Position numbers and translations under genes: made by a program. The notes beneath the pieces are model-generated. The model was not told where the DNA came from. It saw only the letters and a list, made by a program, of their open reading frames with translations, and searched no databases. Below, in pieces: positions 1,800 through 12,912 of a stretch of DNA of 24,000 bases (the first letter of the stretch is position 1; each line of letters begins with the position of its first letter). Location: contig JAFWXR010000037.1 in assembly GCA_017517965.1 (NCBI GenBank), positions 121,764 to 145,763 of the forward strand. Direction: 5' to 3'. Source of the stretch: Clostridia bacterium. Lineage in GTDB: Bacteria > Bacillota > Clostridia > Oscillospirales > Feifaniaceae.

Positions 1800-1809
1800 A
1801 ATTCGGAAT
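1800..1809 (-). repeat. Heptad-repeat remnant (aattcgg aat, 1.4 units of the ATTMCGM family) between two back-to-back terminators
   Basis: Same 7-mer as the long arrays at 3855, 10227, 10823 and 12881, in the same position directly after a terminator T tract. A single short copy could be chance. Confidence 0.4.
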
Positions 1810-3255: not shown

Positions 3256-3273
3256 AATGCGGAATTCGGAATT
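3256..3273 (-). repeat. Heptad array, 2.4 units (aatgcgg aattcgg aatt on +, which reads ATTCCGA ATTCCGC ATT on minus). Left arm of cassette 1.
   Basis: Tandem 7-nt periodicity read directly. It starts 3 nt after the terminator T tract. Confidence 0.8.
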
Positions 3274-3280
3274 AAGGAAA

Positions 3281-3301
3281 GAAACTTCGTGCCGAAGTTT
3301 C
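3281..3301. repeat. Hairpin module gaaacttcg-tgc-cgaagtttc associated with the heptad arrays
   Basis: 9-bp stem. Near-identical stem arms (gaaacttcc / ggaagtttc) recur at 12855-12874. In both places the hairpin sits 6-7 nt from the inner end of a heptad array. Confidence 0.6.
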
Positions 3302-3340
3302 GATTAAATTGTAGGGGAGGACCTATATTTCCTCCCGTTT

Positions 3341-3562
3341 TCATTTCTTTGATTTTGGATAGGGTTCTTTACAATCCGTTCTGCCTGCAAGATAATCCAT
3401 ACTCGTATTAAGAGCATCTGCAACCTTGATACATTGCTCAAAACTTAAATATCTTTTTCCGTTTTCGATTTTTGAATAGTCGCTCTGGTCTATCCCTGTG
3501 AGCATTTGCATTTTTACCTGTGTATATCCGCGTTCTTTTCGCAGTTCTTTAAGCCTGTTCAT
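3341..3562 (-). CDS. XRE-family helix-turn-helix transcriptional regulator (73 aa)
   Basis: MNRLKELRKERGYTQVKMQMLTGIDQSDYSKIENGKRYLSFEQCIKVADALNTSMDYLAGRTD is a typical HTH_3 domain. The start at Met15 of the track ORF (ATG 3562-3560) has SD aggtga 4 nt upstream. The longer 3604 start would overlap the divergent promoter and adds a non-homologous extension. A GGGAGG/CCTCCC hairpin (3315-3336) follows the stop. Confidence 0.85.
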   Translation of the reverse strand: MNRLKELRKERGYTQVKMQMLTGIDQSDYSKIENGKRYLSFEQCIKVADALNTSMDYLAGRTDCKEPYPKSKK

Positions 3563-3597
3563 AACATCACCTGATATTATTATGGCAAATTGACCTA

Positions 3598-3626
3598 TTG
3601 ACATTAGGGTGAAACTGACCTATAAT
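3598..3626 (+). promoter_or_regulatory. Consensus sigma-A type promoter for the 50-aa gene (TTGACA-17-TATAAT)
   Basis: TTGACA 3598-3603, 17-nt spacer, TATAAT 3621-3626, about 20 nt upstream of the SD gaggtga and the ATG at 3647. It overlaps two direct copies of AAAYTGACCTAT (3587-3598 and 3612-3623). Confidence 0.65.
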
Positions 3627-3646
3627 TTGGTGGAAGAGGTGATATT

Positions 3647-3799
3647 ATGGCAGATTATAAACAGATGTATTTAACACTGCTTGATGCGACCGAAAAAGCA
3701 ATAAATCAACTTATTTCGGCACAGCGTGCCTGCGAAGAGATTTATATTCTTTCTGCCAAGGAAGAAGAAGAAAATAAAAAACCGATTTCTGTTATTTAA
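3647..3799 (+). CDS. Small hypothetical protein (50 aa, predicted helical, acidic tail), divergent partner of the XRE gene
   Basis: Below the 60-aa cut-off of the ORF track. ATG 3647 with SD gaggtga 4 nt upstream and a perfect promoter. Product: MADYKQMYLTLLDATEKAINQLISAQRACEEIYILSAKEEEENKKPISVI, stop TAA 3797-3799. No family assigned. Confidence 0.6.
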   Translation: MADYKQMYLTLLDATEKAINQLISAQRACEEIYILSAKEEEENKKPISVI

Positions 3800-3854
3800 C
3801 GGGACGCCGTCCCCTATGATAAGGTAATAGTGAAAAGTGAATAAGTTCGGTTGA

Positions 3855-3886
3855 AATTCCGAATTACGCATTCCGAATTCCGAATT
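3855..3886 (+). repeat. Heptad array, 4.4 units (attccga attacgc attccga attccga att). Right arm of cassette 1.
   Basis: Exact 7-nt register read directly. It ends 5 nt before the A tract of the rny terminator. Confidence 0.9.
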
Positions 3887-3891
3887 GAAAT

Positions 3892-3921
3892 AAAAAAGAG
3901 ACCAATTTGGTCTCTTTTTTT
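3892..3921. terminator. Bidirectional intrinsic terminator (serves rny on minus and the 50-aa gene on plus)
   Basis: A tract 3892-3897, stem gagacc (3898-3903) / ggtctc (3909-3914), loop aattt, T tract 3915-3921. The rny stop codon (3920-3922) lies in the tract. Confidence 0.8.
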
Positions 3922-5476
3922 ATTTCGCAACGTCCTGTGCGCGCTTTTCTCTTATTACGTTTACCTTTATCTGACCGGGGTATTCAAGTTCACCCTCAAT
4001 CTTCTGGGCGATTTCCCTTGCGAGAATTACTAATCTGTCGTCACTTATCTTTTCGGGGTTGACCATAATACGAACTTCACGGCCTGCCTGAATTGCAAAT
4101 GACTTTTCAACGCCGTCAAAGCTCGTCGTAATTTCTTCAAGCTTTTCAAGACGCTTTATGTAGTTCTCAAGGTTTTCTCTTCTTGAACCGGGGCGTGCAG
4201 CGGAAACTGCATCTGCCGCCTGAACGAGAGCAGCAATCGTATACTTGGGAGCAACGTCACCGTGGTGGCTTTCGATAGAATTGACAACCACGTCATTTTC
4301 CTTATACTTCTTTGCAACGTCCGAACCGAGCTGAACGTGTGAACCTTCAATCTCATGGTCGAGCGCCTTGCCGAGATCGTGCAGGAGACCTGCCCTTCTT
4401 GCGAGATTTACGTCAAGACCGAGCTCGGATGCCATAACGCCTGCTATATGCGACACTTCAATAGAGTGGAGAAGAACGTTCTGACCGTAACTCGTCCTGT
4501 ATTTGAGTTTACCTAAAAGTTTGACAATTTCGGGGTGAAGATTTACGATGCCTGCTTCAAGAGCAGCCTTTTCACCCTCCTGCTTGATGATGTTGTTGAT
4601 GTCTTTTCTCGTCTTATCAACGATTTCTTCAATCTTTGCGGGATGAATACGACCGTCGTGAATAAGCCTTTCGAGTGACAGACGTGCAATTTCCCTGCGG
4701 ACAGGGTCAAAGCAGGAAACTGTGATAACTTCGGGAGTATCGTCGATTATAAGGTCAACGCCCGTAAGTGTTTCAAGTGCCTTTACGTTTCTGCCTTCAC
4801 GGCCGATTATACGGCCCTTCATCTCATCGCTGGGGATGGGGACTACCGATATGGTTGCTTCTGCAACGTATTCGGGTGCACAGCGCTGTATAGCCTGAGC
4901 AATGATTTCTCTTGCTTTTTCCGTGCTTTCGTCGTTGAATTTCTGCTCCGACTCCTTTATCTTGAGGGCACGCTCGTGATCGAGCTCCTGCTCAAGCTGG
5001 GAGAGAAGCATTTCCTTTGCCTGCTCCGTGGTGTAGCCCGAAATTCTTTCAAGCGCTTCCCACTGCTGCTTTTTGATGTTTGCAACATCCTCCATCTGTA
5101 CTTCTACTTCGTGGAGTTTTTCGGCAAGTTTTTCTTCCTTCTTTTCGATTGCATCGTACTTTTTGTCGATGCTCTCTTCCTTCTGATTCAGACGCCTTTC
5201 CTGGTTCTGAACTTCTTTTCTGCGCTCCTTGAGCTCGGCTTCCATTTCCGTTCTGCTGCGCAGGATTTCTTCCTTAGCTTCGAGTATTGACTCTTTTTTC
5301 TTGCTTTCAGCCGCCTTGATAGCGTCATTAACTATTCTTTTTGCCTCTGTTTCGGCAGAGCCGATCTTGCTTTCGGCAACCCTTTTTCTGTGGCTTATGC
5401 CGATGAAGAATGCAATTACAAAAACAAGTAAAAGAGCAACCACGCCGACAACTAACTGAACTGGTGTAAACGGCAT
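3920..5476 (-). CDS. rny: Ribonuclease Y
   Basis: N-terminal TM helix, long Glu/Lys-rich coiled coil, KH domain ([29 protein letters not shown]) and HD domain ([18 protein letters not shown] ... [10 protein letters not shown] ... ESHHGD). 518 aa, typical for rny. SD aaaggag upstream. Confidence 0.95.
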
Positions 5477-5539
5477 TTTCCGGTTTCTCCTTTTCTGATA
5501 TTTAAGATTAAGCCTTTAAAGGCATATAATCTAACTTAT

Positions 5540-5569
5540 ATTATAAATTTTAATTGTACTTTTTGTCAA
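5540..5569 (-). promoter_or_regulatory. Candidate rny promoter (TTGACA-18-TATAAT on minus strand)
   Basis: Complement of tgtcaa at 5564-5569 and of attata at 5540-5545. A 12-nt palindrome gcctttaaaggc (5512-5523) lies in the resulting 5' UTR. Confidence 0.5.
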
Positions 5570-5606
5570 GAAAAGTTTAACATTATATTAAGAAAAATAT
5601 GCTACA

Positions 5607-5635
5607 TTTACAACGCCGATGTTTTATGTTATAAT
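5607..5635 (+). promoter_or_regulatory. Candidate rnf operon promoter (TTTACA-17-TATAAT)
   Basis: TTTACA 5607-5612, 17-nt spacer, TATAAT 5630-5635, 36 nt upstream of the preferred rnfC start. Confidence 0.6.
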
Positions 5636-5670
5636 AACGGGTGGCAAATTACGAAAAGTTGAGGTATAAA

Positions 5671-6858
5671 ATGCTTTTAACATTCAGAGGCGGCGTTGAC
5701 GCCGGCAATAAAAGTGAATTTTTAAGCGGCTCGGTAATAAATACGATTGGTGCAGGGGAAACGCTTGTGTTGCCCGTTCCGTTTGGCTGTACACCCGTGG
5801 TTGAAGCGGGGGAGAGGGTGCTTGCAGGGCAGGTTGTTGCCGTGTCCGACAATGAGTACGGCGCATCTCTGTCGAGTGCGGTGTCAGGTACTGTTGTAAA
5901 GGCAACCGCATCACGTATTACCATTGAAAATGATGGTGAAAATACGCTATGTGACAGGCTTGAGGCAGATGACCCGATAACGCTTCTCCGTGACGCAGGG
6001 GTGACTGACCGTTTCGGTTTTTCTGCTGCGCAGAAGGTGGCAAACGCACCGGCACTCTACATCATCAGTTGCGTTGAGGACCAGCCGTATATGGTAAACG
6101 TGCAGGCTCTTTTGTCCTGCAGGGCTGACGAGTTTATCGGCGGTATAAAACTGCTCGAAAAAATAAGTGAAAATGCGCACATTGTGATTTGTACGACGCC
6201 CGACCTTTCTGAGTATGCTTCAAAGATTTCCGAGGCGCTTATGGAGGATGAAAGGGTACAGTTTCTCACGGTCAGCGGAAAGTATCCGCAGAGCTGGCCC
6301 CATATTTTAAAGCGTACCGTTACGACTGAGGAGAGTTGCGAAGTTATAGGGACGGAGGAGCTTTGTAATATTTACAGGGTGTTTAAGACGAGAATGCCCG
6401 TGACAGAAAAAATAGTTACCTTAAGCGGTGACTGTATGAGACGTGCAGAGGTCTTTTCGGTGCCCTACGGTACCTGTGTGTCAACCCTCATTAAAGCGGG
6501 GACGAGCTTTAAACGTGAACCGCTGAAGGTTGTCAAGGGCAGTGTTATGAACGGGGACGCCATATACAATATGCGTTCGCCCATAGATCGCACCGTATCA
6601 AGCGTGCTGACGCTTTTTGACCATCAGCACCGCTACGCAGGCGAATCGCATTGTATAAGCTGCGGAAGGTGTGACAACGTCTGTCCCGAAGGATTAAGCC
6701 CCGGAAGTATAATCAAGGCGTATAAGTTAAATGATACGGCGACACTGAGCAGGCTTAGCGTAAGCTCGTGCACACTGTGCGGTTGTTGCTCGTTTATATG
6801 TCCCGCAAGGGTAAATCTGCCGCTTATTTTAAGAAGTGCGCAGCTTATGGGAGAATAA
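5671..6858 (+). CDS. rnfC: RnfC-like subunit of an Rnf-type electron transport complex (divergent nucleotide/flavin-binding region)
   Basis: Preferred start is ATG 5671 (SD gaggt 5 nt upstream, product MLLTFRGGV...) rather than GTG 5641. RnfC-like N-terminus (FRGGV, SSAVSGTV), a YPQ motif, an SLBB-like middle region and two C-terminal 4Fe-4S motifs (CISCGRCDNVCP, CTLCGCCSFICP). First gene of the C-D-G-E-A-B order. Confidence 0.8.
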   Translation: MLLTFRGGVDAGNKSEFLSGSVINTIGAGETLVLPVPFGCTPVVEAGERVLAGQVVAVSDNEYGASLSSAVSGTVVKATASRITIENDGENTLCDRLEADDPITLLRDAGVTDRFGFSAAQKVANAPALYIISCVEDQPYMVNVQALLSCRADEFIGGIKLLEKISENAHIVICTTPDLSEYASKISEALMEDERVQFLTVSGKYPQSWPHILKRTVTTEESCEVIGTEELCNIYRVFKTRMPVTEKIVTLSGDCMRRAEVFSVPYGTCVSTLIKAGTSFKREPLKVVKGSVMNGDAIYNMRSPIDRTVSSVLTLFDHQHRYAGESHCISCGRCDNVCPEGLSPGSIIKAYKLNDTATLSRLSVSSCTLCGCCSFICPARVNLPLILRSAQLMGE

Positions 6859-6861
6859 TTT

Positions 6862-7875
6862 ATGAAAAAACATAAAAAACTTCTGCTTGTGTCGGCTTCG
6901 CCACATCTCAAGACGGCACAGGCTACATCGTGGATAATGTTCAACGTGCTTATTGCACTTTTACCTTCGTTTGTTGCATCGTGTTACTTTTTCGGACGAA
7001 GGGCGTTATTTATAACACTTATTTCGGTATCTTTTTCACTCGGCTTTGAGTATCTTTCAAGGCTGATGATGGGCAAACTTCCCACCGTAAGCGACCTCTC
7101 GTGTGTCGTGACGGGTGTTATCATTGCCTTTTGTCTGCCCGTAACGGTGCCCGTGTGGCTGGTTGCAGTAGCAAACTTTTTTGCTATTGTAATCGTCAAG
7201 CAGTGTTTTGGCGGAATAGGGCTCAACATCGTAAATCCGGCGGCGGCGGCGCTGTCGTTGCTGATGGTTTCCTTCACTGCCTCCATGACGAAATTTATTG
7301 CACCGCTTCTTGGCTTTGCGCAGATAATTCCCGAGGATGCAACGGTTGTGACAACGGCACTCTCACAACTCAAAGCAAGCGGGCAGACCCCTCAGAATTT
7401 ATTTAACATCTTTATGGGAAATACCGCAGGCAATATAGGTGAGACGTCGTCGTTTCTGCTTCTTATAGGCGGTGTATACCTGATTGTAAGACGTATTTCA
7501 AACTGGCGTATTCCCGTATCATTTATAGGTACGGTTGCGATTATTTCGCTTGTAAAGTCGTTTGACTTTACATTTATGCTGACGCAACTTTTCAGCGGTA
7601 CGCTTTTCCTTGCGGCATTCTTTATGGCGGTTGACCCCGTTACGTCGCCTCAGTCGCAGTCGGGCAAGGTGGTTTTCGGTGTTATATGCGGTGTTGCCAC
7701 CTGCTATATACGCTTCTTCGGCACTTATACGGAGGGTGCTGTGTTTGCGGTGCTCATTGCAAATCTCGTAACGCCTGTTATTGACAGCCTTTTACCCGTA
7801 AAATATAAGGGCGTCCGTACGGTTGAAAAGAAGAAACTGTCGGATTTTCTGCCTAAAAGGAGGAAAGCACAATGA
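6862..7875 (+). CDS. rnfD: RnfD subunit (polytopic membrane, NqrB/RnfD family)
   Basis: SASPH near the N-terminus, FGGIGLNIVNPA, DATVVTTALSQLK (position of the flavinylated Thr), AVDPVTSP and GAVFAVLIANLVTPVID. All match RnfD hallmarks. Confidence 0.9.
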   Translation: MKKHKKLLLVSASPHLKTAQATSWIMFNVLIALLPSFVASCYFFGRRALFITLISVSFSLGFEYLSRLMMGKLPTVSDLSCVVTGVIIAFCLPVTVPVWLVAVANFFAIVIVKQCFGGIGLNIVNPAAAALSLLMVSFTASMTKFIAPLLGFAQIIPEDATVVTTALSQLKASGQTPQNLFNIFMGNTAGNIGETSSFLLLIGGVYLIVRRISNWRIPVSFIGTVAIISLVKSFDFTFMLTQLFSGTLFLAAFFMAVDPVTSPQSQSGKVVFGVICGVATCYIRFFGTYTEGAVFAVLIANLVTPVIDSLLPVKYKGVRTVEKKKLSDFLPKRRKAQ

Positions 7876-8438
7876 AAGAATTTTTCCTCTCTACGCCCCT
7901 TCGCCGTGTGATAACGGCAGGTGTTGCAATTCTTCTGTCGTTCGGCATTATGGTCGGTGTGCTCACCCCTCTGCTTATATTCGGTGAGGACAGGGTTATA
8001 TCGGCTGCCGTAGCAAACGTTTTTCCCACGGCGACGGATTTTGAAGAAGAACACATAAGGTATGACAATGAAATAGAGTCTCTCTATGCCGTTATGACCG
8101 ATGAAACGGTGGCAGGTTACCTCTATAACGTAAATGCAAACGGCATTTCGGGACAGATAAATTTCTACGTCGGTCTTGATATGACGGGCAGGGTTATAGG
8201 TATATATTTCCCTTATCTTGATGAGCCCGTTTCCTACGGTGATATGACCGAGTTTAACAATTTTATAGCCTCTTTTACCGGCAGAACAGGCCCCTTTGCA
8301 GGGGTTGAGGGTGCGGCAACGCTCGCAGGGGACATATCTCTCGTAGGCGGTGCACATCACACCTGTTACGCGGTTATCGGCGGTGTCAATGCCGTGACGG
8401 AGGCTTTTAACGATGAATTTGCAAATGAGGCGGAATAA
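7872..8438 (+). CDS. rnfG: RnfG-like subunit (FMN_bind-type fold, membrane anchored)
   Basis: ATGA overlap with the rnfD stop, SD aggagg. N-terminal anchor helix, GISGQINFYVGLDMTGRVIG core, C-terminal ...LVGGAHHTCYAVIGGVNAVTEAF aligning to the SGATxTS region of RnfG/NqrC. Confidence 0.8.
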   Translation: MKEFFLSTPLRRVITAGVAILLSFGIMVGVLTPLLIFGEDRVISAAVANVFPTATDFEEEHIRYDNEIESLYAVMTDETVAGYLYNVNANGISGQINFYVGLDMTGRVIGIYFPYLDEPVSYGDMTEFNNFIASFTGRTGPFAGVEGAATLAGDISLVGGAHHTCYAVIGGVNAVTEAFNDEFANEAE

Positions 8439-9029
8439 ATGAAAATACGAAACTTCGCCTCGGGTGATATTTTTACCAGAAACCCGCTTTTGACGGGAGT
8501 TTGCTTTTTTACTCTCGTTATCACAATGACGATATCACTTCTCAACGGTCTGGCAACGGGCATCTTTGTGACCTGCGCCACCATGGTATCGCTCGTTGTG
8601 AGAAAGCTTATATCGCTTTACATTGACGAGAGGTGGCATCTTGCTCTTTACGCTCTGGCTGTCTGTGCCGTAATATCCGTCGGTGAACTGGCGGCAACGG
8701 CAATTTATCCCGACTTTGCTTCGAGAATGGCGCTCTATCTGCCTCTTGCGGCGATATACTGTCTTTCCGACAGGTCGTTTGACTTTACGGCAAAGCCTAT
8801 GCGTGCAACCGTTGAGACAACTCTTTTCAACTGTATCGGTTTTACGGCTGTCTGCACTGCAATAGGTACCGTGCGTGAGTTACTGGCTTTCGGCACGTTA
8901 CTCGGCATACCGGTGATGAAAAATTATCTTAAGATGCCTGCTATGGTGCTTCCAATAGGCGGTATGATAGTTTTCGCATTCGGTCTTGCACTTATTAACC
9001 ACATTAAAGGCAAAGGAGGCAAAATATGA
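8439..9029 (+). CDS. rnfE: RnfE subunit (NqrD/RnfE family membrane protein)
   Basis: RNPLLTGVCFF and LYLPLAAIYCL align to the NPxLxxxLGLCP and LPLIVTNC motifs. A GTVRELLAFGTLLG motif is present. Six hydrophobic helices. Correct position in the operon. Confidence 0.85.
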   Translation: MKIRNFASGDIFTRNPLLTGVCFFTLVITMTISLLNGLATGIFVTCATMVSLVVRKLISLYIDERWHLALYALAVCAVISVGELAATAIYPDFASRMALYLPLAAIYCLSDRSFDFTAKPMRATVETTLFNCIGFTAVCTAIGTVRELLAFGTLLGIPVMKNYLKMPAMVLPIGGMIVFAFGLALINHIKGKGGKI

Positions 9030-9583
9030 TAGAACTGCTTTCTCTTGTCATAACGGCAATGATTGCCGAAAATCTGCTCTGTGCAAGGGCTATGGGTATG
9101 GAAACGGCACTTTTTGACCGTCACGACTACCTGCATTTCGGCGTATTCACGGTTGTTTCGTCTACGGTGCTCTCACTTTTTGCGTGGCTTTTTGACTTCT
9201 TTGTGTTTGCCCGTTTCGACTTACAGTTTCTTCGTGTTTTTGCCTATATACCGCTTCTTTTTACGGTTGTATGGGCACTGCAGTATCTGCCGAAAATAGG
9301 CGTTCATCTTGAAAAATACAAAAATGCGCTTATTTTCAACAGCGCTCTGCTCGGTGTTGCGGTAATTACCGCAGTTAAGACCTATCCTGTCTATTACGCC
9401 GTGCTTTACGGCTTTTTTGCAGGACTCGGATACATCGTTGCACTGCTTTTGTTTAACAAACTGTGCAGCAGGATAAGTAATGCCGACCTGCCCCGTGCAT
9501 TTGTGGGTATGCCCTCAAAACTTCTTATTCTTGCCCTGATGTCTCTTGCTTCAATGGCATTTACGGGAGGTGTTACGGTATGA
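9026..9583 (+). CDS. rnfA: RnfA-like subunit (NqrE/RnfA family membrane protein, divergent)
   Basis: ATGA overlap with the rnfE stop, SD aaggagg. C-terminal ...ADLPRAFVGMPSKLLILALMSLASMAFTG matches the RnfA tail (VPxxFxGxxIxLIxAGLMSLAFMGF). Correct position in the operon. Confidence 0.8.
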   Translation: MIELLSLVITAMIAENLLCARAMGMETALFDRHDYLHFGVFTVVSSTVLSLFAWLFDFFVFARFDLQFLRVFAYIPLLFTVVWALQYLPKIGVHLEKYKNALIFNSALLGVAVITAVKTYPVYYAVLYGFFAGLGYIVALLLFNKLCSRISNADLPRAFVGMPSKLLILALMSLASMAFTGGVTV

Positions 9584-10197
9584 TTATTGCACTGAAAATA
9601 TTACTTGCGATTGTAATCGTCGCAGGAAGCGGTGCCCTTTGCATATTCTTTCTCAAGGATAAGATTCCTGCCGAGAAGAAGGGGCAGTCGGTGCCGACTC
9701 AAAGGCTTACGGCTGTCGTTGCCTGCTGCGGTAACGAGCAGAGTACCGACGTTTCTTTCGACTATGCGGGCGAGCTTACCTGTGAATCGGCGTCGCACCT
9801 TTTCGGTGGCGACAAGAGTTGTCCGTATGCCTGCATCGGCTACGGTGACTGTGAAAAGATCTGTCCCGAAAATGCAATTACCATGAAAAAAGGCCTGCCG
9901 GTCATAGATTCACTCAAATGCACCTTTTGTAAGAAGTGTATTGAAATATGTCCCAAGGGACTGATAAGACCGCAGAGCTCGTCGTTCTCCTACTACGTTG
10001 CGTGCAGTAACAAGCGTTTTTCCAAGACCGAAAAGTATTGCGATACGGGCTGTAACGGCTGCGGTAAGTGCATAGAGGTATGCGAAAAGAAGGCAATTTC
10101 CTACAACGGCAGACGAGTTATAATAGACGATAATCTCTGCGATTTATGCGGAAAATGCATAGAAGTCTGCGACAGAAACGTAATAAAACACGTGTAG
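9580..10197 (+). CDS. rnfB: RnfB-like ferredoxin subunit (short form: N-terminal anchor plus poly-ferredoxin region)
   Basis: ATGA overlap with the rnfA stop, SD gggaggtg. N-terminal TM helix, then CPYACIGYGDCEKICP, CTFCKKCIEICP, CNGCGKCIEVC and CDLCGKCIEVC cluster motifs. Last gene of the operon, followed by a terminator. Confidence 0.8.
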   Translation: MIIALKILLAIVIVAGSGALCIFFLKDKIPAEKKGQSVPTQRLTAVVACCGNEQSTDVSFDYAGELTCESASHLFGGDKSCPYACIGYGDCEKICPENAITMKKGLPVIDSLKCTFCKKCIEICPKGLIRPQSSSFSYYVACSNKRFSKTEKYCDTGCNGCGKCIEVCEKKAISYNGRRVIIDDNLCDLCGKCIEVCDRNVIKHV

Positions 10198-10226
10198 AAA
10201 AAGGCATCCAATGGATGCCTTTTTTT
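10198..10226. terminator. Bidirectional intrinsic terminator after rnfB
   Basis: A tract 10198-10202, stem ggcatcc (10203-10209) / ggatgcc (10213-10219), T tract 10220-10226. Confidence 0.8.
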
Positions 10227-10258
10227 AATTCGGAATTCGTAATTCGTAATTCGGAATT
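10227..10258 (-). repeat. Heptad array, 4.4 units (aattcgg aattcgt aattcgt aattcgg aatt on +). Left arm of cassette 2.
   Basis: Begins at the nucleotide immediately after the terminator T tract. Exact 7-nt register. Confidence 0.9.
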
Positions 10259-10265
10259 GAGGTTG

Positions 10266-10505
10266 TTAAAATGTTTCGTTATCTTTTTCAAAAATCTTCA
10301 TTGTAAGTCGGGTGGCTGTGTCAATGCCTTCTTCGTAATATTCCTCCATCATAATCTCTGATTGTTGCAGTTTCAGCAGGCTGATTGAATGATACAATTT
10401 TTTCTGTTCTTCACTTAAACTTTCAAGTAGATTATTTTGAAGTTCTCTGATTTTTTTGCTGTATTCTGAATATTGGGATTGTCTGTGAGAATTTTCAAAA
10501 AACAT
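10266..10505 (-). CDS. Small hypothetical helical protein (79 aa), divergent partner of the RHH gene
   Basis: ATG 10505 with SD gaggt 5 nt upstream on the minus strand. Product MFFENSHRQSQYSEYSKKIRELQNNLLESLSEEQKKLYHSISLLKLQQSEIMMEEYYEEGIDTATRLTMKIFEKDNETF has heptad-like hydrophobic spacing. No family confidently recognised. Confidence 0.6.
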   Translation of the reverse strand: MFFENSHRQSQYSEYSKKIRELQNNLLESLSEEQKKLYHSISLLKLQQSEIMMEEYYEEGIDTATRLTMKIFEKDNETF

Positions 10506-10518
10506 AGTATACCTCGAT

Positions 10519-10552
10519 ATATGTTATTAATATGTTATAAATCATAACATAT
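10519..10552. promoter_or_regulatory. Operator-like cluster of the 9-mer ATATGTTAT (two direct copies 11 bp apart plus one inverted copy)
   Basis: ATATGTTAT at 10519-10527 and 10530-10538, and ATAACATAT at 10544-10552. Copies 2 and 3 form a perfect 9-bp inverted repeat with a 5-bp spacer. A fourth copy at 10591-10599 overlaps the SD/ATG of the RHH gene. Confidence 0.55.
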
Positions 10553-10597
10553 TAAAGAAACTTAAGTCAACATATACTCTATGTGAGGTGATATGTT

Positions 10598-10786
10598 ATG
10601 AATGACAAACTCATTATAAACAAGAGGAAACTGAAAGGTGATGACGGATACAAAACCTTTTCAGTGAGGATAAAAGACGAAACGGTAGAAAACTTGAATA
10701 AATTGGCAAAAGAAACAAACCGTTCAAGAAATGAATTGATAAATATTTTGTTGGAATATGCTATAGCAAACAGCAAAATCGTGTAA
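10598..10786 (+). CDS. Ribbon-helix-helix (CopG/Arc/MetJ-like) DNA-binding protein, 62 aa
   Basis: SD gaggtg 7 nt upstream. KTFSVRIKDETVENLNKLAKETNRSRNELINILLEYAI follows the beta-strand, helix, helix pattern of RHH repressors. Confidence 0.75.
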   Translation: MNDKLIINKRKLKGDDGYKTFSVRIKDETVENLNKLAKETNRSRNELINILLEYAIANSKIV

Positions 10787-10822
10787 TTTCAATGATTTTT
10801 GATGAAATCAAAAATCTACCAT

Positions 10823-10854
10823 AATTACGCATTCCGCATTCCGAATTCCGCATT
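10823..10854 (+). repeat. Heptad array, 4.4 units (attacgc attccgc attccga attccgc att). Right arm of cassette 2.
   Basis: Exact 7-nt register. It abuts the terminator A tract at 10855. It is preceded by the hairpin gatttttga/tcaaaaatc (10794-10816) and the spacer TACCAT, the same spacer as at 12875-12880. Confidence 0.9.
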
Positions 10855-10886
10855 AAAAAAGAAGGACTTAAAGTCCTTCTTTTATT
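10855..10886. terminator. Bidirectional intrinsic terminator whose stem-loop contains the stop codon of the minus-strand DUF21-CBS gene
   Basis: A tract 10855-10860, stem gaaggact (10861-10868) / agtccttc (10872-10879), T-rich 10880-10886. The stop codon complement tta lies at 10868-10870. Confidence 0.75.
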
Positions 10887-12175
10887 GTTACCGTTATTTC
10901 TTCTGCCATTGTTTCGCTTGCTTTTGTTACCGCTATTGACAGACCCTCATACTCGATTTTCTGACACTGGGCAGGGATGTTTCCAAGCATCTCCGTAAGC
11001 CAGCCGTTTACGGTTAATACGTCAAGGTCTTCGGGCATTTCAAGTGAAAAATAATCGAAGAAAGCATTTATTTCGGTTGAACAAAGCACTTTATACGTGT
11101 TCTCACCGACTTTCTTGATATCTTCAATCGCTTCGTCACTCTCGTCCCATATCTCACCGACAAGTTCTTCTATTATATCCTCTATCGTTACGATACCAGC
11201 CGTGCCGCCGTATTCATTTACGACAATCACAATGTGAGTGTGCGTTTTCTGCATATTGCTCAGCAGTACGTCAAGATGCATACCCTCTGCCACGAACGTG
11301 GGCTCGAGAAGTATATTTTTGAGGGCAAAACCGTCTTTGGCATAGTTTAAAAGATAGTCCCTCGTGTGAAGTATGCCGACGATATTGTCCGTCGTCTCGG
11401 AATACACGGGAAGGCGTGAATACCTTTCCGTTTCTATGACGGAAAGAATCTCCTCCTGTGAGGCATCTGCCGACACGAAAACAACGTTTTCACGGGGCAT
11501 CATTACGTTTTCCGCAGTGAGCGCATCAAGCTTAAAGACGTTCTTTATGTAACTGATTTCATCGCTGTCAAACGTACCCTCGTCACCGCCTGCATCGAGC
11601 ATAAGCTCAATATCCTCCTGCGAAACCGCCTCTTCCTTTTCATTCGGGTCGATACCGAAGAGACGCAGTACGCCGTTTGTCGAAACCGTAAGAAGCCATA
11701 CGATAGGTCTGAGTGCAACCGCAAGTCCCGATATTGAACCGCAGACTGCTTCTGCAAACTTTTCCTTATGCTTCATTGCCACACGCTTGGGTACAAGTTC
11801 ACCGAGTACAAGTGTGAAGAATGAAAGCACGAGCGTTATCACAATGACCGATGCCGTGTTTACCGTACCGTATTGTGAAGCAGGCATATTGAAGGCCTTG
11901 ATGATAAAGCCTGTCAGCCTTTCGGCAAAATTGTCTGCCGCAAAAGCTGAGCCGAGAAAGCCTGCAAGCGTTATGCCTATCTGGATGGTTGAGAGAAAAC
12001 GTGTCGGCTCTTCAATCATCTTGAGCATTTTGACGGCTTTTTTGTCCCCGTCCTCCGCACGTGCTCTGAGTTTGATTTCGTTGAGTGATATTACGGCAAT
12101 CTCCGTTGCCGCAAAAAATGCATTGAGTAAAATTAGAATTAGCTGCAACAAAAGTTGTCGGGCTATGTCTGACAT
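10868..12175 (-). CDS. Hemolysin-family / CNNM-type protein (DUF21 + CBS pair + CorC_HlyC), third paralog in the window
   Basis: 435 aa. N-terminal DUF21 helices (LLNAFFAATEIAVISL), MMPRENVVFV, a CBS pair, GIVTIEDIIEELVGEIWDE and a C-terminal CorC_HlyC-like domain. Confidence 0.9.
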   Translation of the reverse strand: MSDIARQLLLQLILILLNAFFAATEIAVISLNEIKLRARAEDGDKKAVKMLKMIEEPTRFLSTIQIGITLAGFLGSAFAADNFAERLTGFIIKAFNMPASQYGTVNTASVIVITLVLSFFTLVLGELVPKRVAMKHKEKFAEAVCGSISGLAVALRPIVWLLTVSTNGVLRLFGIDPNEKEEAVSQEDIELMLDAGGDEGTFDSDEISYIKNVFKLDALTAENVMMPRENVVFVSADASQEEILSVIETERYSRLPVYSETTDNIVGILHTRDYLLNYAKDGFALKNILLEPTFVAEGMHLDVLLSNMQKTHTHIVIVVNEYGGTAGIVTIEDIIEELVGEIWDESDEAIEDIKKVGENTYKVLCSTEINAFFDYFSLEMPEDLDVLTVNGWLTEMLGNIPAQCQKIEYEGLSIAVTKASETMAEEITVTIKEGL

Positions 12176-12854: not shown

Positions 12855-12874
12855 GAAACTTCCAAGGAAGTTTC
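12855..12874. repeat. Hairpin module gaaacttcc-aa-ggaagtttc (second copy of the 3281-3301 module)
   Basis: Arms differ from the 3281-3301 copy at one position per arm, and the change is compensatory (g:c becomes c:g). It is followed by TACCAT and then the heptad array. Confidence 0.6.
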
Positions 12875-12880
12875 TACCAT

Positions 12881-12912
12881 AATTCCGCATTCCGAATTCC
12901 GCATTCCGAATT
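12881..12912 (+). repeat. Heptad array, 4.4 units (attccgc attccga attccgc attccga att)
   Basis: Perfect alternation of the two commonest units. It abuts the terminator A tract at 12913. Confidence 0.9.

Follow-up and report, generated by a model that had tools for sequence, protein, structure and literature searches.

A 24,000-nucleotide (nt) stretch of a Clostridia bacterium chromosome (GenBank assembly GCA_017517965.1, contig JAFWXR010000037.1, positions 121,764 to 145,763; hereafter the window) carries two small divergent genes between rnfB and a CNNM gene, enclosed by a pair of inverted arrays of 7-nt repeats. This locus, referred to here as cassette 2, raises the question of whether such arrays are the ends of a unit that is exchanged together with its genes, or host repeats beside which an ordinary gene pair lies. 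The source genome was read as this 24-kb window and its relatives as short pieces, with L-numbers denoting the retrieved comparison loci. Our reading, to which we give a probability of roughly 0.5, is that the locus is a self-contained and exchangeable micro-cassette of small size and foreign composition, that its ends are inverted AATKCGK arrays plus a subterminal hairpin, and that it belongs to a broad array-bounded family. At the level of aligned sequence, lineages have exchanged whole cassettes, the same ends recur at a second genomic location, and the arrays change rapidly in copy number and between G and T at the two K positions.

Anatomy of cassette 2

The locus comprises the following features, in window coordinates.

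10198–10226 (hairpin 10200–10222), plus strand: left terminator, a bidirectional intrinsic terminator 3′ of rnfB, with an A-tract, a GGCATCC-AAT-GGATGCC stem-loop and a T-tract.
10227–10258, plus strand: left heptad array, AATTCGG AATTCGT AATTCGT AATTCGG AATT, 32 base pairs (bp).
10266–10505, minus strand: gene of a 79-amino-acid (aa) protein of family DUF6809 (Pfam PF20648; 31.4 bits, cut-off 27), the fast-evolving cargo.
10506–10597, no strand: divergent control region of 92 bp, 23.9% G+C, with a putative operator of the ribbon-helix-helix (RHH) protein.
10598–10786, plus strand: gene of a 62-aa RHH protein of the CopG/Arc type (RHH_1, 29.4 bits, cut-off 20.5, residues 21–54), the conserved cargo.
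10794–10822, plus strand: subterminal module, a hairpin GATTTTTGA-TGAAA-TCAAAAATC (10794–10816) and then TACCAT, directly inside the right array.
10823–10854, minus strand: right heptad array, AATGCGG AATTCGG AATGCGG AATGCGT AATT, 32 bp.
10855–10887 (hairpin 10859–10881), minus strand: right terminator, bidirectional, of the CNNM/DUF21-CBS gene, GAAGGACT-TAA-AGTCCTTC.

The inverted arrays, the two open reading frames (ORFs) and the AT-rich region between them had been recognized in a preliminary description of this DNA, and all of them were recovered here. Tandem Repeats Finder returned the left array with period 7 (4.6 copies, 92% matches) and further period-7 arrays at 10824–10854, 3855–3886 and 12881–12912. 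The two arrays of cassette 2, 628 bp from outer edge to outer edge, pair as an inverted repeat over 43 nt at 81% complementarity (match I2) and over 25 nt at 88% (match I5). Each consists of 4.5 units of the consensus AATKCGK and varies solely at the two K positions. With up to one mismatch allowed, the degenerate heptad dimer AATKCGKAATKCGK has 13 matches in the window against 0.17 expected, a number that none of 100 shuffles reached. Both arrays adjoin the T/A tracts of bidirectional terminator hairpins with no spacer, as the preliminary description had it; its label of 'host-gene' terminators is weakened, since related stems recur beside arrays at different genes and in different genomes, and by their sequence these terminators look partly like modules of the element.

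An earlier hand count of about 30% G+C over 10261–10800 agrees with the computed 30.1–30.2%, against 45.9% for the whole window; fewer than 1% of 540-bp windows are so low. The G+C content at third codon positions is 0.31–0.40 in the cargo genes and 0.49–0.56 in the neighbouring genes. The neighbours are rnfCDGEAB and the CNNM/CBS/CorC gene, and elsewhere the window consists of core chromosomal genes, among them RNase Y, Maf, MreC, PBP2 and MinD-like genes.

The control region contains four copies of ATATGTTAT, at 10519, 10530, 10544 (inverted) and 10591, and this 9-mer is found nowhere else in the 24 kb, being confined to 10519–10599. A perfect palindrome, ATATGTTAT-AAATC-ATAACATAT, covers part of the −10 hexamer in the predicted sigma-70-like promoter of the 79-aa gene (TTGACT-18-TATGAT with an upstream TG, 10570–10541, minus strand), and it is kept in the three relatives described below (L129, L244 and L245). 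Because of their position, their uniqueness and their conservation even in a cassette that lacks the RHH gene, the repeats are likely to be an RHH operator over the DUF6809 promoter. Binding of the RHH protein to the heptad arrays themselves is unlikely, because ATATGTTAT is unlike the heptad and a sister cassette in the window (cassette 1) combines the same arrays with another DNA-binding fold.

The RHH protein is basic (isoelectric point, pI, 9.6) and matches phrog_5118 over its full length as well as Arc-like repressor PHROGs. Searches of 50,697 phage records with the RHH and 79-aa proteins gave no match, and an RHH search in viral contigs gave one distant match (32% identity). The 79-aa protein is acidic (pI 5.0), and Pfam assigns it to DUF6809 only, the family that precomputed annotation also gives for P0001 and P0004. 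Its predicted fold, modelled from three sequences, is a two-helix hairpin (helices 3–29 and 32–77; predicted local distance difference test score 81), and a PDB fold search with this model gave no match. No PHROGs or NCBIfam family matches the protein, and comparison of DUF6809 with a four-helix-bundle alignment by hhalign gave a probability of 0.6%. A word-indexed homology search returned only the protein itself, and a full HMMER search against 1.84 billion representatives found only two DUF6809 relatives; the motif MEEYYEEG is invariant in the protein and its DUF6809 relatives. PADLOC gave no match for the 79-aa and RHH proteins, the 50-aa protein of cassette 1 or the DUF6809 homologues, and only generic helix-turn-helix (HTH) matches for the XRE protein of cassette 1. 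Our guess is that DUF6809 is a small acidic regulator or anti-regulator under RHH control.

The geometry of the locus implies that each cassette mRNA would exit through one array (AAUUMCG in the sense strand) and end at the flanking bidirectional terminator. By its position the rnfB terminator would also stop the transcript of the 79-aa gene, which arrives from the opposite side. Because the two internal promoters diverge, no predicted transcript holds both arrays. Rfam at the gathering threshold gave no match in the window and nine array-bearing loci. Gene callers run through the arrays and thereby produce artefactual ORF extensions, such as the peptide ...NSEFGMRNSEL....

Exchange between lineages and a second location

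Comparison of the rnfB 3′ end among related genomes, as the preliminary description had suggested, revealed discordant histories of cassette and flanks, and no clean empty site. Identical copies of the cassette are present in several ruminant-gut assemblies. In L129 the cassette occupies the same site between rnfB and CNNM, where nt identity to the window is 78–88% in the rnf genes (rnfB 88%) and 88% in CNNM, against 98.4% in the RHH gene, 98.7–98.8% in the 79-aa gene and 96.7% in the control region. The stretch of high identity begins about 50 bp inside rnfB, takes in an rnfB terminator that is 100% identical, and stops at the right array, beyond which the right terminator sequence differs. 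Within it, the left array shows G/T flips at both K positions, the right array measures 25 bp, one unit shorter than in the window, and the subterminal hairpin has a compensatory stem change.

The opposite relation is seen in L244 (GCA_045602805.1), which has a cassette at the same locus. Its rnfB and CNNM genes are each 92% identical to those of the window in nt and 96% in aa, closer than those of L129, and its cargo is more distant (RHH 86% nt; DUF6809 74% nt and 53% aa). Host genes and cassette thus give opposite trees, and cassette alleles are therefore exchanged. Beside a CNNM terminator with an unchanged stem, L244 carries AATTGAA AATTGAA AGTTGAT AGTTAAG instead of AATKCGK; the array thus changed with the cassette and not with the host terminator. 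On the opposite side of its cassette, L244 differs in its rnfB terminator (stem GCACCC-CTTA-GGGTGC) and carries a CATATCG-plus-hairpin unit in four copies.

In L245 (GCA_045538835.1) a homologous pair lies at a different locus, between the prmA and prs terminators. Its RHH protein is 88.7% and its 86-aa DUF6809 protein 39% identical in aa, the two genes diverge from the same operator palindrome, and the flanks hold a 32-bp and an 18-bp AATKCGK array with a GAAACTTC hairpin module. A second cassette 3 kb away consists of a 95-aa DUF6809 gene alone between two arrays, with no adjacent RHH gene. It ends in the window's 10794–10822 module, with the hairpin GATTTTTGAT...ATCAAAAATC as at 10794–10816, and one of its arrays adjoins the spoIIE stop codon and not a terminator. 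All four arrays in these 9 kb flank the two DUF6809 cassettes of L245. These two, together with cassette 1, are further cassettes with the same boundaries, whose absence would have counted against the preliminary description.

That description had also proposed that the boundaries, and not the cargo, define the unit. This holds insofar as one chassis is shared by varied cargoes; the cargo is nevertheless not arbitrary, as the RHH gene, operator and subterminal hairpins travel together (82–86% nt identity in L244 and L245) and DUF6809 diverges fast. Across the relatives, aa identity is 85–89% for the repressor and falls to 39–55% for its DUF6809 partner. Every copy of the cassette has 28–31% G+C, against 45–50% in the hosts.

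An RnfB homologue search gave two relatives only, of which one has the cassette. The other (L128; 71% RnfB identity) lacks heptads throughout its 16.6 kb, has bidirectional terminators of the ordinary kind and a rearranged gene order, and so yields no clean empty site. A metagenome scan with the RHH alignment found three distant homologues, none with AATKCGK arrays.

Two side observations concern these same loci. The window from 3920 to 5640 (the RNase Y gene and its upstream region) is 97.5–98.5% identical to L129 and the adjoining rnf operon (5641–10150) 78–88%, a mosaic that indicates frequent recombination between the lineages. In L244 (2560–2720), CATATCG/GATATATC spacers alternate with short GC hairpins in place of a heptad array, and the same repeat type lies 5′ of a four-helix-bundle gene in the viral contigs L259 and L260 (1000–1180).

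Heptad arrays in the window and across bacteria

Beyond cassette 2, the window contains cassette 1 and solo arrays.

3256–3886, no strand: sister cassette 1, with an 18-bp left array, a hairpin GAAACTTCG-TGC-CGAAGTTTC at the left end and a GTAG hairpin resembling repetitive extragenic palindromes (REPs) at 3311–3340.
Right side of cassette 1: a degenerate GTGAAWA heptad run, then a 32-bp array (3855–3886).
3341–3562/3604, minus strand: XRE HTH gene of cassette 1, encoding a basic protein (pI 9.1).
3647–3799, plus strand: gene of the 50-aa acidic protein of cassette 1 (pI 4.7).
12858–12912, minus strand: solo half-element, a hairpin GAAACTTCC-AAG-GAAGTTTC, TACCAT and a 32-bp array (12881–12912), with no partner array and no cargo.
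1800–1809, plus strand: shrunken solo array, AATTCGGAAT, 10 bp, between two convergent terminators.

The shared architecture that the preliminary description had drawn between cassette 2 and 3256–3886 is real, as cassette 1 has its own pair of arrays (18 and 32 bp) around the XRE and 50-aa genes. Both cassettes combine a basic DNA-binding protein (pI 9.1–9.6) with an acidic helical protein of 50–79 aa (pI 4.7–5.0). Across assemblies of the same species, the left array of cassette 1 measures 18, 25 or 32 bp, and its flanking terminator stems are swapped among strains; L268 has a GCACCC-GATT-GGGTGC stem on both sides. The solo half-element sits between the stop codon of an energy-coupling factor (ECF) transporter S-component gene and a terminator shared with a diacylglycerol-kinase gene. 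The site at 1800–1809 shows that strains differ in array length, with 10 bp in the window, 12 bp in L265 and 18 bp in L267.

Other repeats accompany the arrays. REP-like units (TGTAGGGG plus a palindrome, i.e. a GTAG head followed by a hairpin) lie just inside heptad arrays in the window (3311–3340), L028, L076, L077, L089 and L122, and in L089 (3613–4004) two arrays enclose two such units in inverted orientation. A second heptad family, GTGAAWA / TTCATTA, is found beside or within AATKCGK-bounded elements in the window (3822–3850), L265, L246 (1330–1395) and L019; these Clostridia thus have several families of tandem heptads side by side.

A search of one genome per GTDB species for exact matches to three heptads plus AATT gave at least 120 loci. 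Among the matches listed, arrays of a single unit type, (AATTCGT)n or (AATTCGG)n, are found in Nostoc, Calothrix, Bacteroidota, Acidobacteriota, Planctomycetota, Chloroflexota and others, and mixed-unit arrays, very often of exactly 32 bp, in Oscillospiraceae, Ruminococcus and other Clostridia. In the Clostridia such arrays are often arranged as inverted pairs at a distance of 160–215 bp, and two types of end recur in these pairs, AATT-ATGGT-hairpin and AATT-GAATGTGTCCGC-hairpin. The contents seen within this chassis are XRE plus 50 aa, RHH plus DUF6809, DUF6809 alone, genes of the four-helix-bundle family TIGR02436, or nothing; cargo-less inverted pairs 160–215 bp apart are present in several Oscillospiraceae and Ruminococcus metagenome-assembled genomes (MAGs) and in one phage family. 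Target-site duplications were absent from the outer edges of 24 array-bounded elements, cassette 2 included.

One family of Firmicute phage contigs has an inverted pair of the same short type, 135 bp long, separating the primase gene from the helicase gene (L150, 4911–5045). An AAA-type ATPase ORF of these contigs reads in frame through a solo hairpin-plus-array unit, which is located within the ORF or at its end (L150, 7540–7720; peptide ...SNSEFGMRNSEL...). The unit in the ATPase ORF is missing from L204 (1290–1420), a presence/absence polymorphism in which about 34 bp are replaced and not cleanly interrupted. A search of viral contigs for the terminal-module pattern gave no match.

Two further loci are recorded for their arrays. 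In the cyanophage-like contigs L138 (6400–8800) and L176 (4190–5940), back-to-back inverted (AATTCGT)n arrays are present in nearly every intergenic gap between structural and lysis genes. In a Bacteroidales MAG from yak reticulum (L084, 1868–2580), a purN-like housekeeping gene lies between mixed AATKCGK arrays like those of Clostridia, owing either to passage of the repeat between phyla in the rumen or to faulty binning. Tandem heptamers (TAACTGA) have been reported from Beggiatoaceae, cyanobacteria and Bacteroidetes, a distribution over several phyla for which no mechanism of transfer is known (PMC4679880).

The commonest protein cargo of heptad-array micro-elements is the TIGR02436 four-helix-bundle protein. 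Its genes stand exactly between AATKCGK arrays in L086 (Clostridia), L116 (Oscillospiraceae), L117 (Nostoc) and L219 (a viral contig), with scores of 104–110 bits against a cut-off of 24. A small sample of TIGR02436-like genes was then chosen from viral contigs by protein similarity alone (11 distinct loci, L249–L261). Arrays are present on both sides within 160 bp at nine of the 11, with period 7 (period 8 at one), and eight of these nine pairs are inverted; elsewhere in the sampled loci arrays are rare. The units differ from locus to locus: CAATTGA, AATTGAC, AATTTGTA, AATTGAA, TAATGTA, AGTAATG, AATTCGT, TTTTGAG and AAAATAG, one each. The unit AATTGAA is common to one of these loci and to the flank of the L244 cassette. 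Chance finds add TIGR02436-like genes within inverted arrays of TTCACAG in L111 (4150–4750) and of a 14-mer in L022 (2000–2650). Cassettes with a single four-helix-bundle gene have one array in each untranslated region.

The same protein family connects the arrays to the intervening sequences (IVSs) of ribosomal RNA (rRNA). The IVS in the 23S rRNA of Coxiella is 428 nt long and low in G+C, has terminal inverted repeats and tandem GACAGAT heptamers upstream of its S23p ORF, and has been described as a 'selfish element' with no known means of moving (PMC4990558). The four-helix-bundle family is related to Avd of diversity-generating retroelements (PMC10053308). We found no paper on heptad-flanked TIGR02436 genes or on AATKCGK arrays, nor one connecting these observations. 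Combined, they allow a wider proposal that we consider distinctly unlikely: that inverted heptad arrays would define an undescribed cross-phylum class of micro-cassettes with the 23S rRNA IVS as a special case, that TIGR02436 would be a trans-acting specificity factor matched to its own unit, and that the RHH/DUF6809 unit would be a non-autonomous passenger.

Weighing the explanations

If cassette 2 is an exchangeable unit, its workings may be sketched as follows. An RHH dimer would bind the ATATGTTAT repeats and repress both its own promoter and the divergent DUF6809 promoter, and probably also the DUF6809 genes of RHH-less cassettes with the same operator. Both transcripts would leave through an array and stop at the flanking bidirectional terminators, and the unit would therefore be insulated from its neighbours. 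The cassette would spread without a DDE transposase, which is unlikely because of the lack of target-site duplications. Within a lineage, allelic replacement through flanking homology would account for L129 and L244. The L245 copies at other loci require something that acts on the ends, and spread between loci could then proceed by an array-recognizing process, such as recombination at arrays or from one array to another, or a factor that binds them in trans. The TIGR02436 protein encoded by sister cassettes with the same heptads is our best candidate for such a factor, as a favoured speculation.

Several observations weigh against this reading. All nine contigs (9/9) with the exact CNNM protein also carry cassette 2, no clean empty site was found among these contigs or the RnfB relatives, and three related genomes have the pair at that site. 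The distant RHH homologues (63–72% identity) lie at other loci with a similar ATAACAT-type operator, without AATKCGK arrays and without a DUF6809 partner. Ordinary homologous recombination would suffice to explain the replacement in L244, which takes in the rnfB terminator. The 24-kb window shows no transposase, recombinase or TIGR02436 gene, and to our knowledge the 118-aa four-helix bundle has no known catalytic activity. Finally, the arrays of this lineage each adjoin a terminator, some are single and without cargo (1800–1809, 12881–12912), and their lengths vary among strains; convergent terminators could therefore be what gives the arrays their inverted orientation.

These last points lead to the main rival, in which the arrays are length-variable host repeats, comparable to short tandemly repeated repetitive (STRR) sequences, or a terminator-plus-array module, and RHH/DUF6809 is an ordinary accessory islet exchanged through flanking homology. 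Such repeats would gather beside intrinsic terminators in this lineage, and any small gene islet between two convergent terminators would then seem to be bracketed by inverted arrays. Six of the six arrays or remnants in the window touch a terminator T-tract, in constant orientation relative to it. The cargo-free arrays, the strain variation at cassette 1 (18/25/32 bp) and at the remnant (10/12/18 bp), the related terminator stems beside arrays at unrelated genes and the lack of target-site duplications all fit host repeats, as do pure AATTCGT arrays across many phyla and the tandem heptamers known as an intergenic feature in cyanobacteria, Beggiatoaceae and Bacteroidetes (PMC4679880). In L244, however, both the heptad and the cassette allele differ beside an unchanged CNNM terminator, and L128 has functional bidirectional terminators without any heptads. 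The four arrays in 9 kb of L245 all flank DUF6809 cassettes, one of them at a stop codon, the same subterminal hairpins accompany arrays at different loci, and nine of the 11 four-helix-bundle genes are array-flanked in a sample chosen without regard to arrays. On this balance we regard host repeats as possible though somewhat unlikely.

The cargo could alternatively be a 'moron' of the acr-aca type, i.e. a small, conserved, autoregulating repressor, of RHH type in cassette 2 and of XRE type in cassette 1, over the strong promoter of a small, acidic, diversifying inhibitor. The pairing of a basic DNA-binding with an acidic helical protein in both window cassettes agrees with this, as do the contrast between a repressor conserved at 85–89% aa and a partner that falls to 39–55%, and a self-contained unit with its own promoter, operator and terminators. 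It is nonetheless very unlikely: the cargo has no homology to a known anti-defence protein, lies in the core chromosome and not in a recognizable mobile element, gave no match in the 50,697 phage records and only the one distant RHH match in viral contigs, and consists of divergent genes that are not co-transcribed.

Equally doubtful is an action of the arrays as RNA, whereby they would pair in a read-through transcript and form an RNase III substrate that excises or stabilizes the cassette RNA, as in IVSs. Single four-helix-bundle cassettes, with an array in each untranslated region, would suit such a process. At cassette 2 an RNase III stem is unlikely because terminators separate the host genes from both arrays, the internal promoters diverge so that each mRNA carries AAUUMCG sense repeats only, and the mismatches between the arms (81–88% complementary) at K positions are U-C or G-A and not wobble pairs. 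Left and right K patterns agree in one inspected pair only (L069). Array-to-array pairing as a selected stem was rejected as a candidate, as left and right K positions do not co-vary.

The weakest explanation, a toxin-antitoxin (TA), addiction or anti-phage module with RHH as antitoxin or regulator and the 79-aa protein as effector, had been raised in the preliminary description from the pairing of a regulator with a small protein and can draw on an RHH autoregulator beside a small, variable partner, low G+C and weak sub-threshold NCBIfam similarities of RHH to RelB/BrnA-type antitoxins, but it is the least probable of all, since the genes diverge from a 92-bp region without an operon (as the same description had noted, atypical for type II TA), the acidic two-helix hairpin has no PADLOC, PHROGs, NCBIfam or PDB fold match and no toxin family, DUF6809 occurs in L245 in a cassette of its own without adjacent RHH and RHH homologues occur alone, and the putative antitoxin is here the conserved and the putative toxin the variable partner, which is unusual though not diagnostic.

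Irrespective of these weights, how rRNA IVSs move and why identical heptamers occur in unrelated phyla are questions about 30 years old, and the locus ties both to a testable anatomy of inverted heptad arrays, a subterminal hairpin and swappable tiny genes. It brings forward TIGR02436, a large and uncharacterized Avd-like family, as a candidate array-binding factor. The RHH repressor with its palindromic operator and hypervariable DUF6809 partner also offers a small system for giving DUF6809 a first function.

Among known systems, integron cassettes differ in having a single attC site each, beside an integrase/attI platform, where cassette 2 has two symmetric heptad arrays, and no integrase is seen in the window. 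STRR and TAACTGA repeats resemble the arrays as intergenic tandem 7-nt units with the same unit in distant phyla, (AATTCGT)n in Nostoc, Calothrix, Bacteroidota and Acidobacteriota being an example; the cassette arrays differ in their near-fixed 4.5 units, the mixture of four unit variants and their inverted pairing with a conserved subterminal hairpin around genes. With acr-aca morons, cassette 2 shares an AT-rich, self-contained transcription unit between unrelated genes and a small repressor beside a variable acidic protein, but it is in the core chromosome and fixed in the species, with divergent genes and no homology to known morons or anti-defence genes. Type II TA systems of the RelB, ParD or CopG-like kind likewise have a small RHH autoregulator, a palindromic operator and a small partner gene; cassette 2 differs in that its genes do not form an operon, no toxin family or fold matches the partner, and each gene is also found without the other.

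REPINs, non-autonomous elements with inverted repeats, are mobilized by REP-associated tyrosine transposases (RAYTs). Along with miniature inverted-repeat transposable elements (MITEs), they are short intergenic elements with inverted ends and hairpins, often beside terminators, and cargo-less versions of 160–215 bp in related genomes add to the likeness; cassette 2 also has terminal inverted repeats as in MITEs (I2, I5). Its ends, however, are copy-variable tandem heptads and not a unique terminal sequence. It differs from MITEs further in the lack of target-site duplications at 24 elements, in two expressed-looking genes and in the absence of a transposase from the window, and from REPIN/RAYT systems in a repeat that is a tandem heptad, with a REP-like GTAG hairpin only inside cassette 1 (3311–3340) and no RAYT gene seen in the window. 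TIGR02436 genes within locus-specific arrays do recall RAYT genes flanked by their own REPs, and in the wider proposal above the factor would suit its unit as a RAYT suits its REPs.

IVSs of Leptospira and Coxiella encode S23p/TIGR02436 proteins, sit in an rRNA helix and are excised by RNase III. Cassette 2 instead lies between the terminators of protein genes (rnfB and CNNM), its cargo is RHH plus DUF6809, of which neither ORF matches TIGR02436 (NCBIfam; hhalign 0.6% for DUF6809), and it has its own divergent promoters and a putative operator, with no predicted transcript spanning both arrays. The likeness extends to a size of about 0.4–0.7 kb, G+C below that of the host and terminal inverted repeats that include tandem heptamers. 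Both have a tiny gene of nucleic-acid-binding type, no transposase and a sporadic horizontal distribution (PMC4990558), and the AATKCGK heptad of cassette 2 brackets TIGR02436 genes in other Clostridia and in Nostoc.

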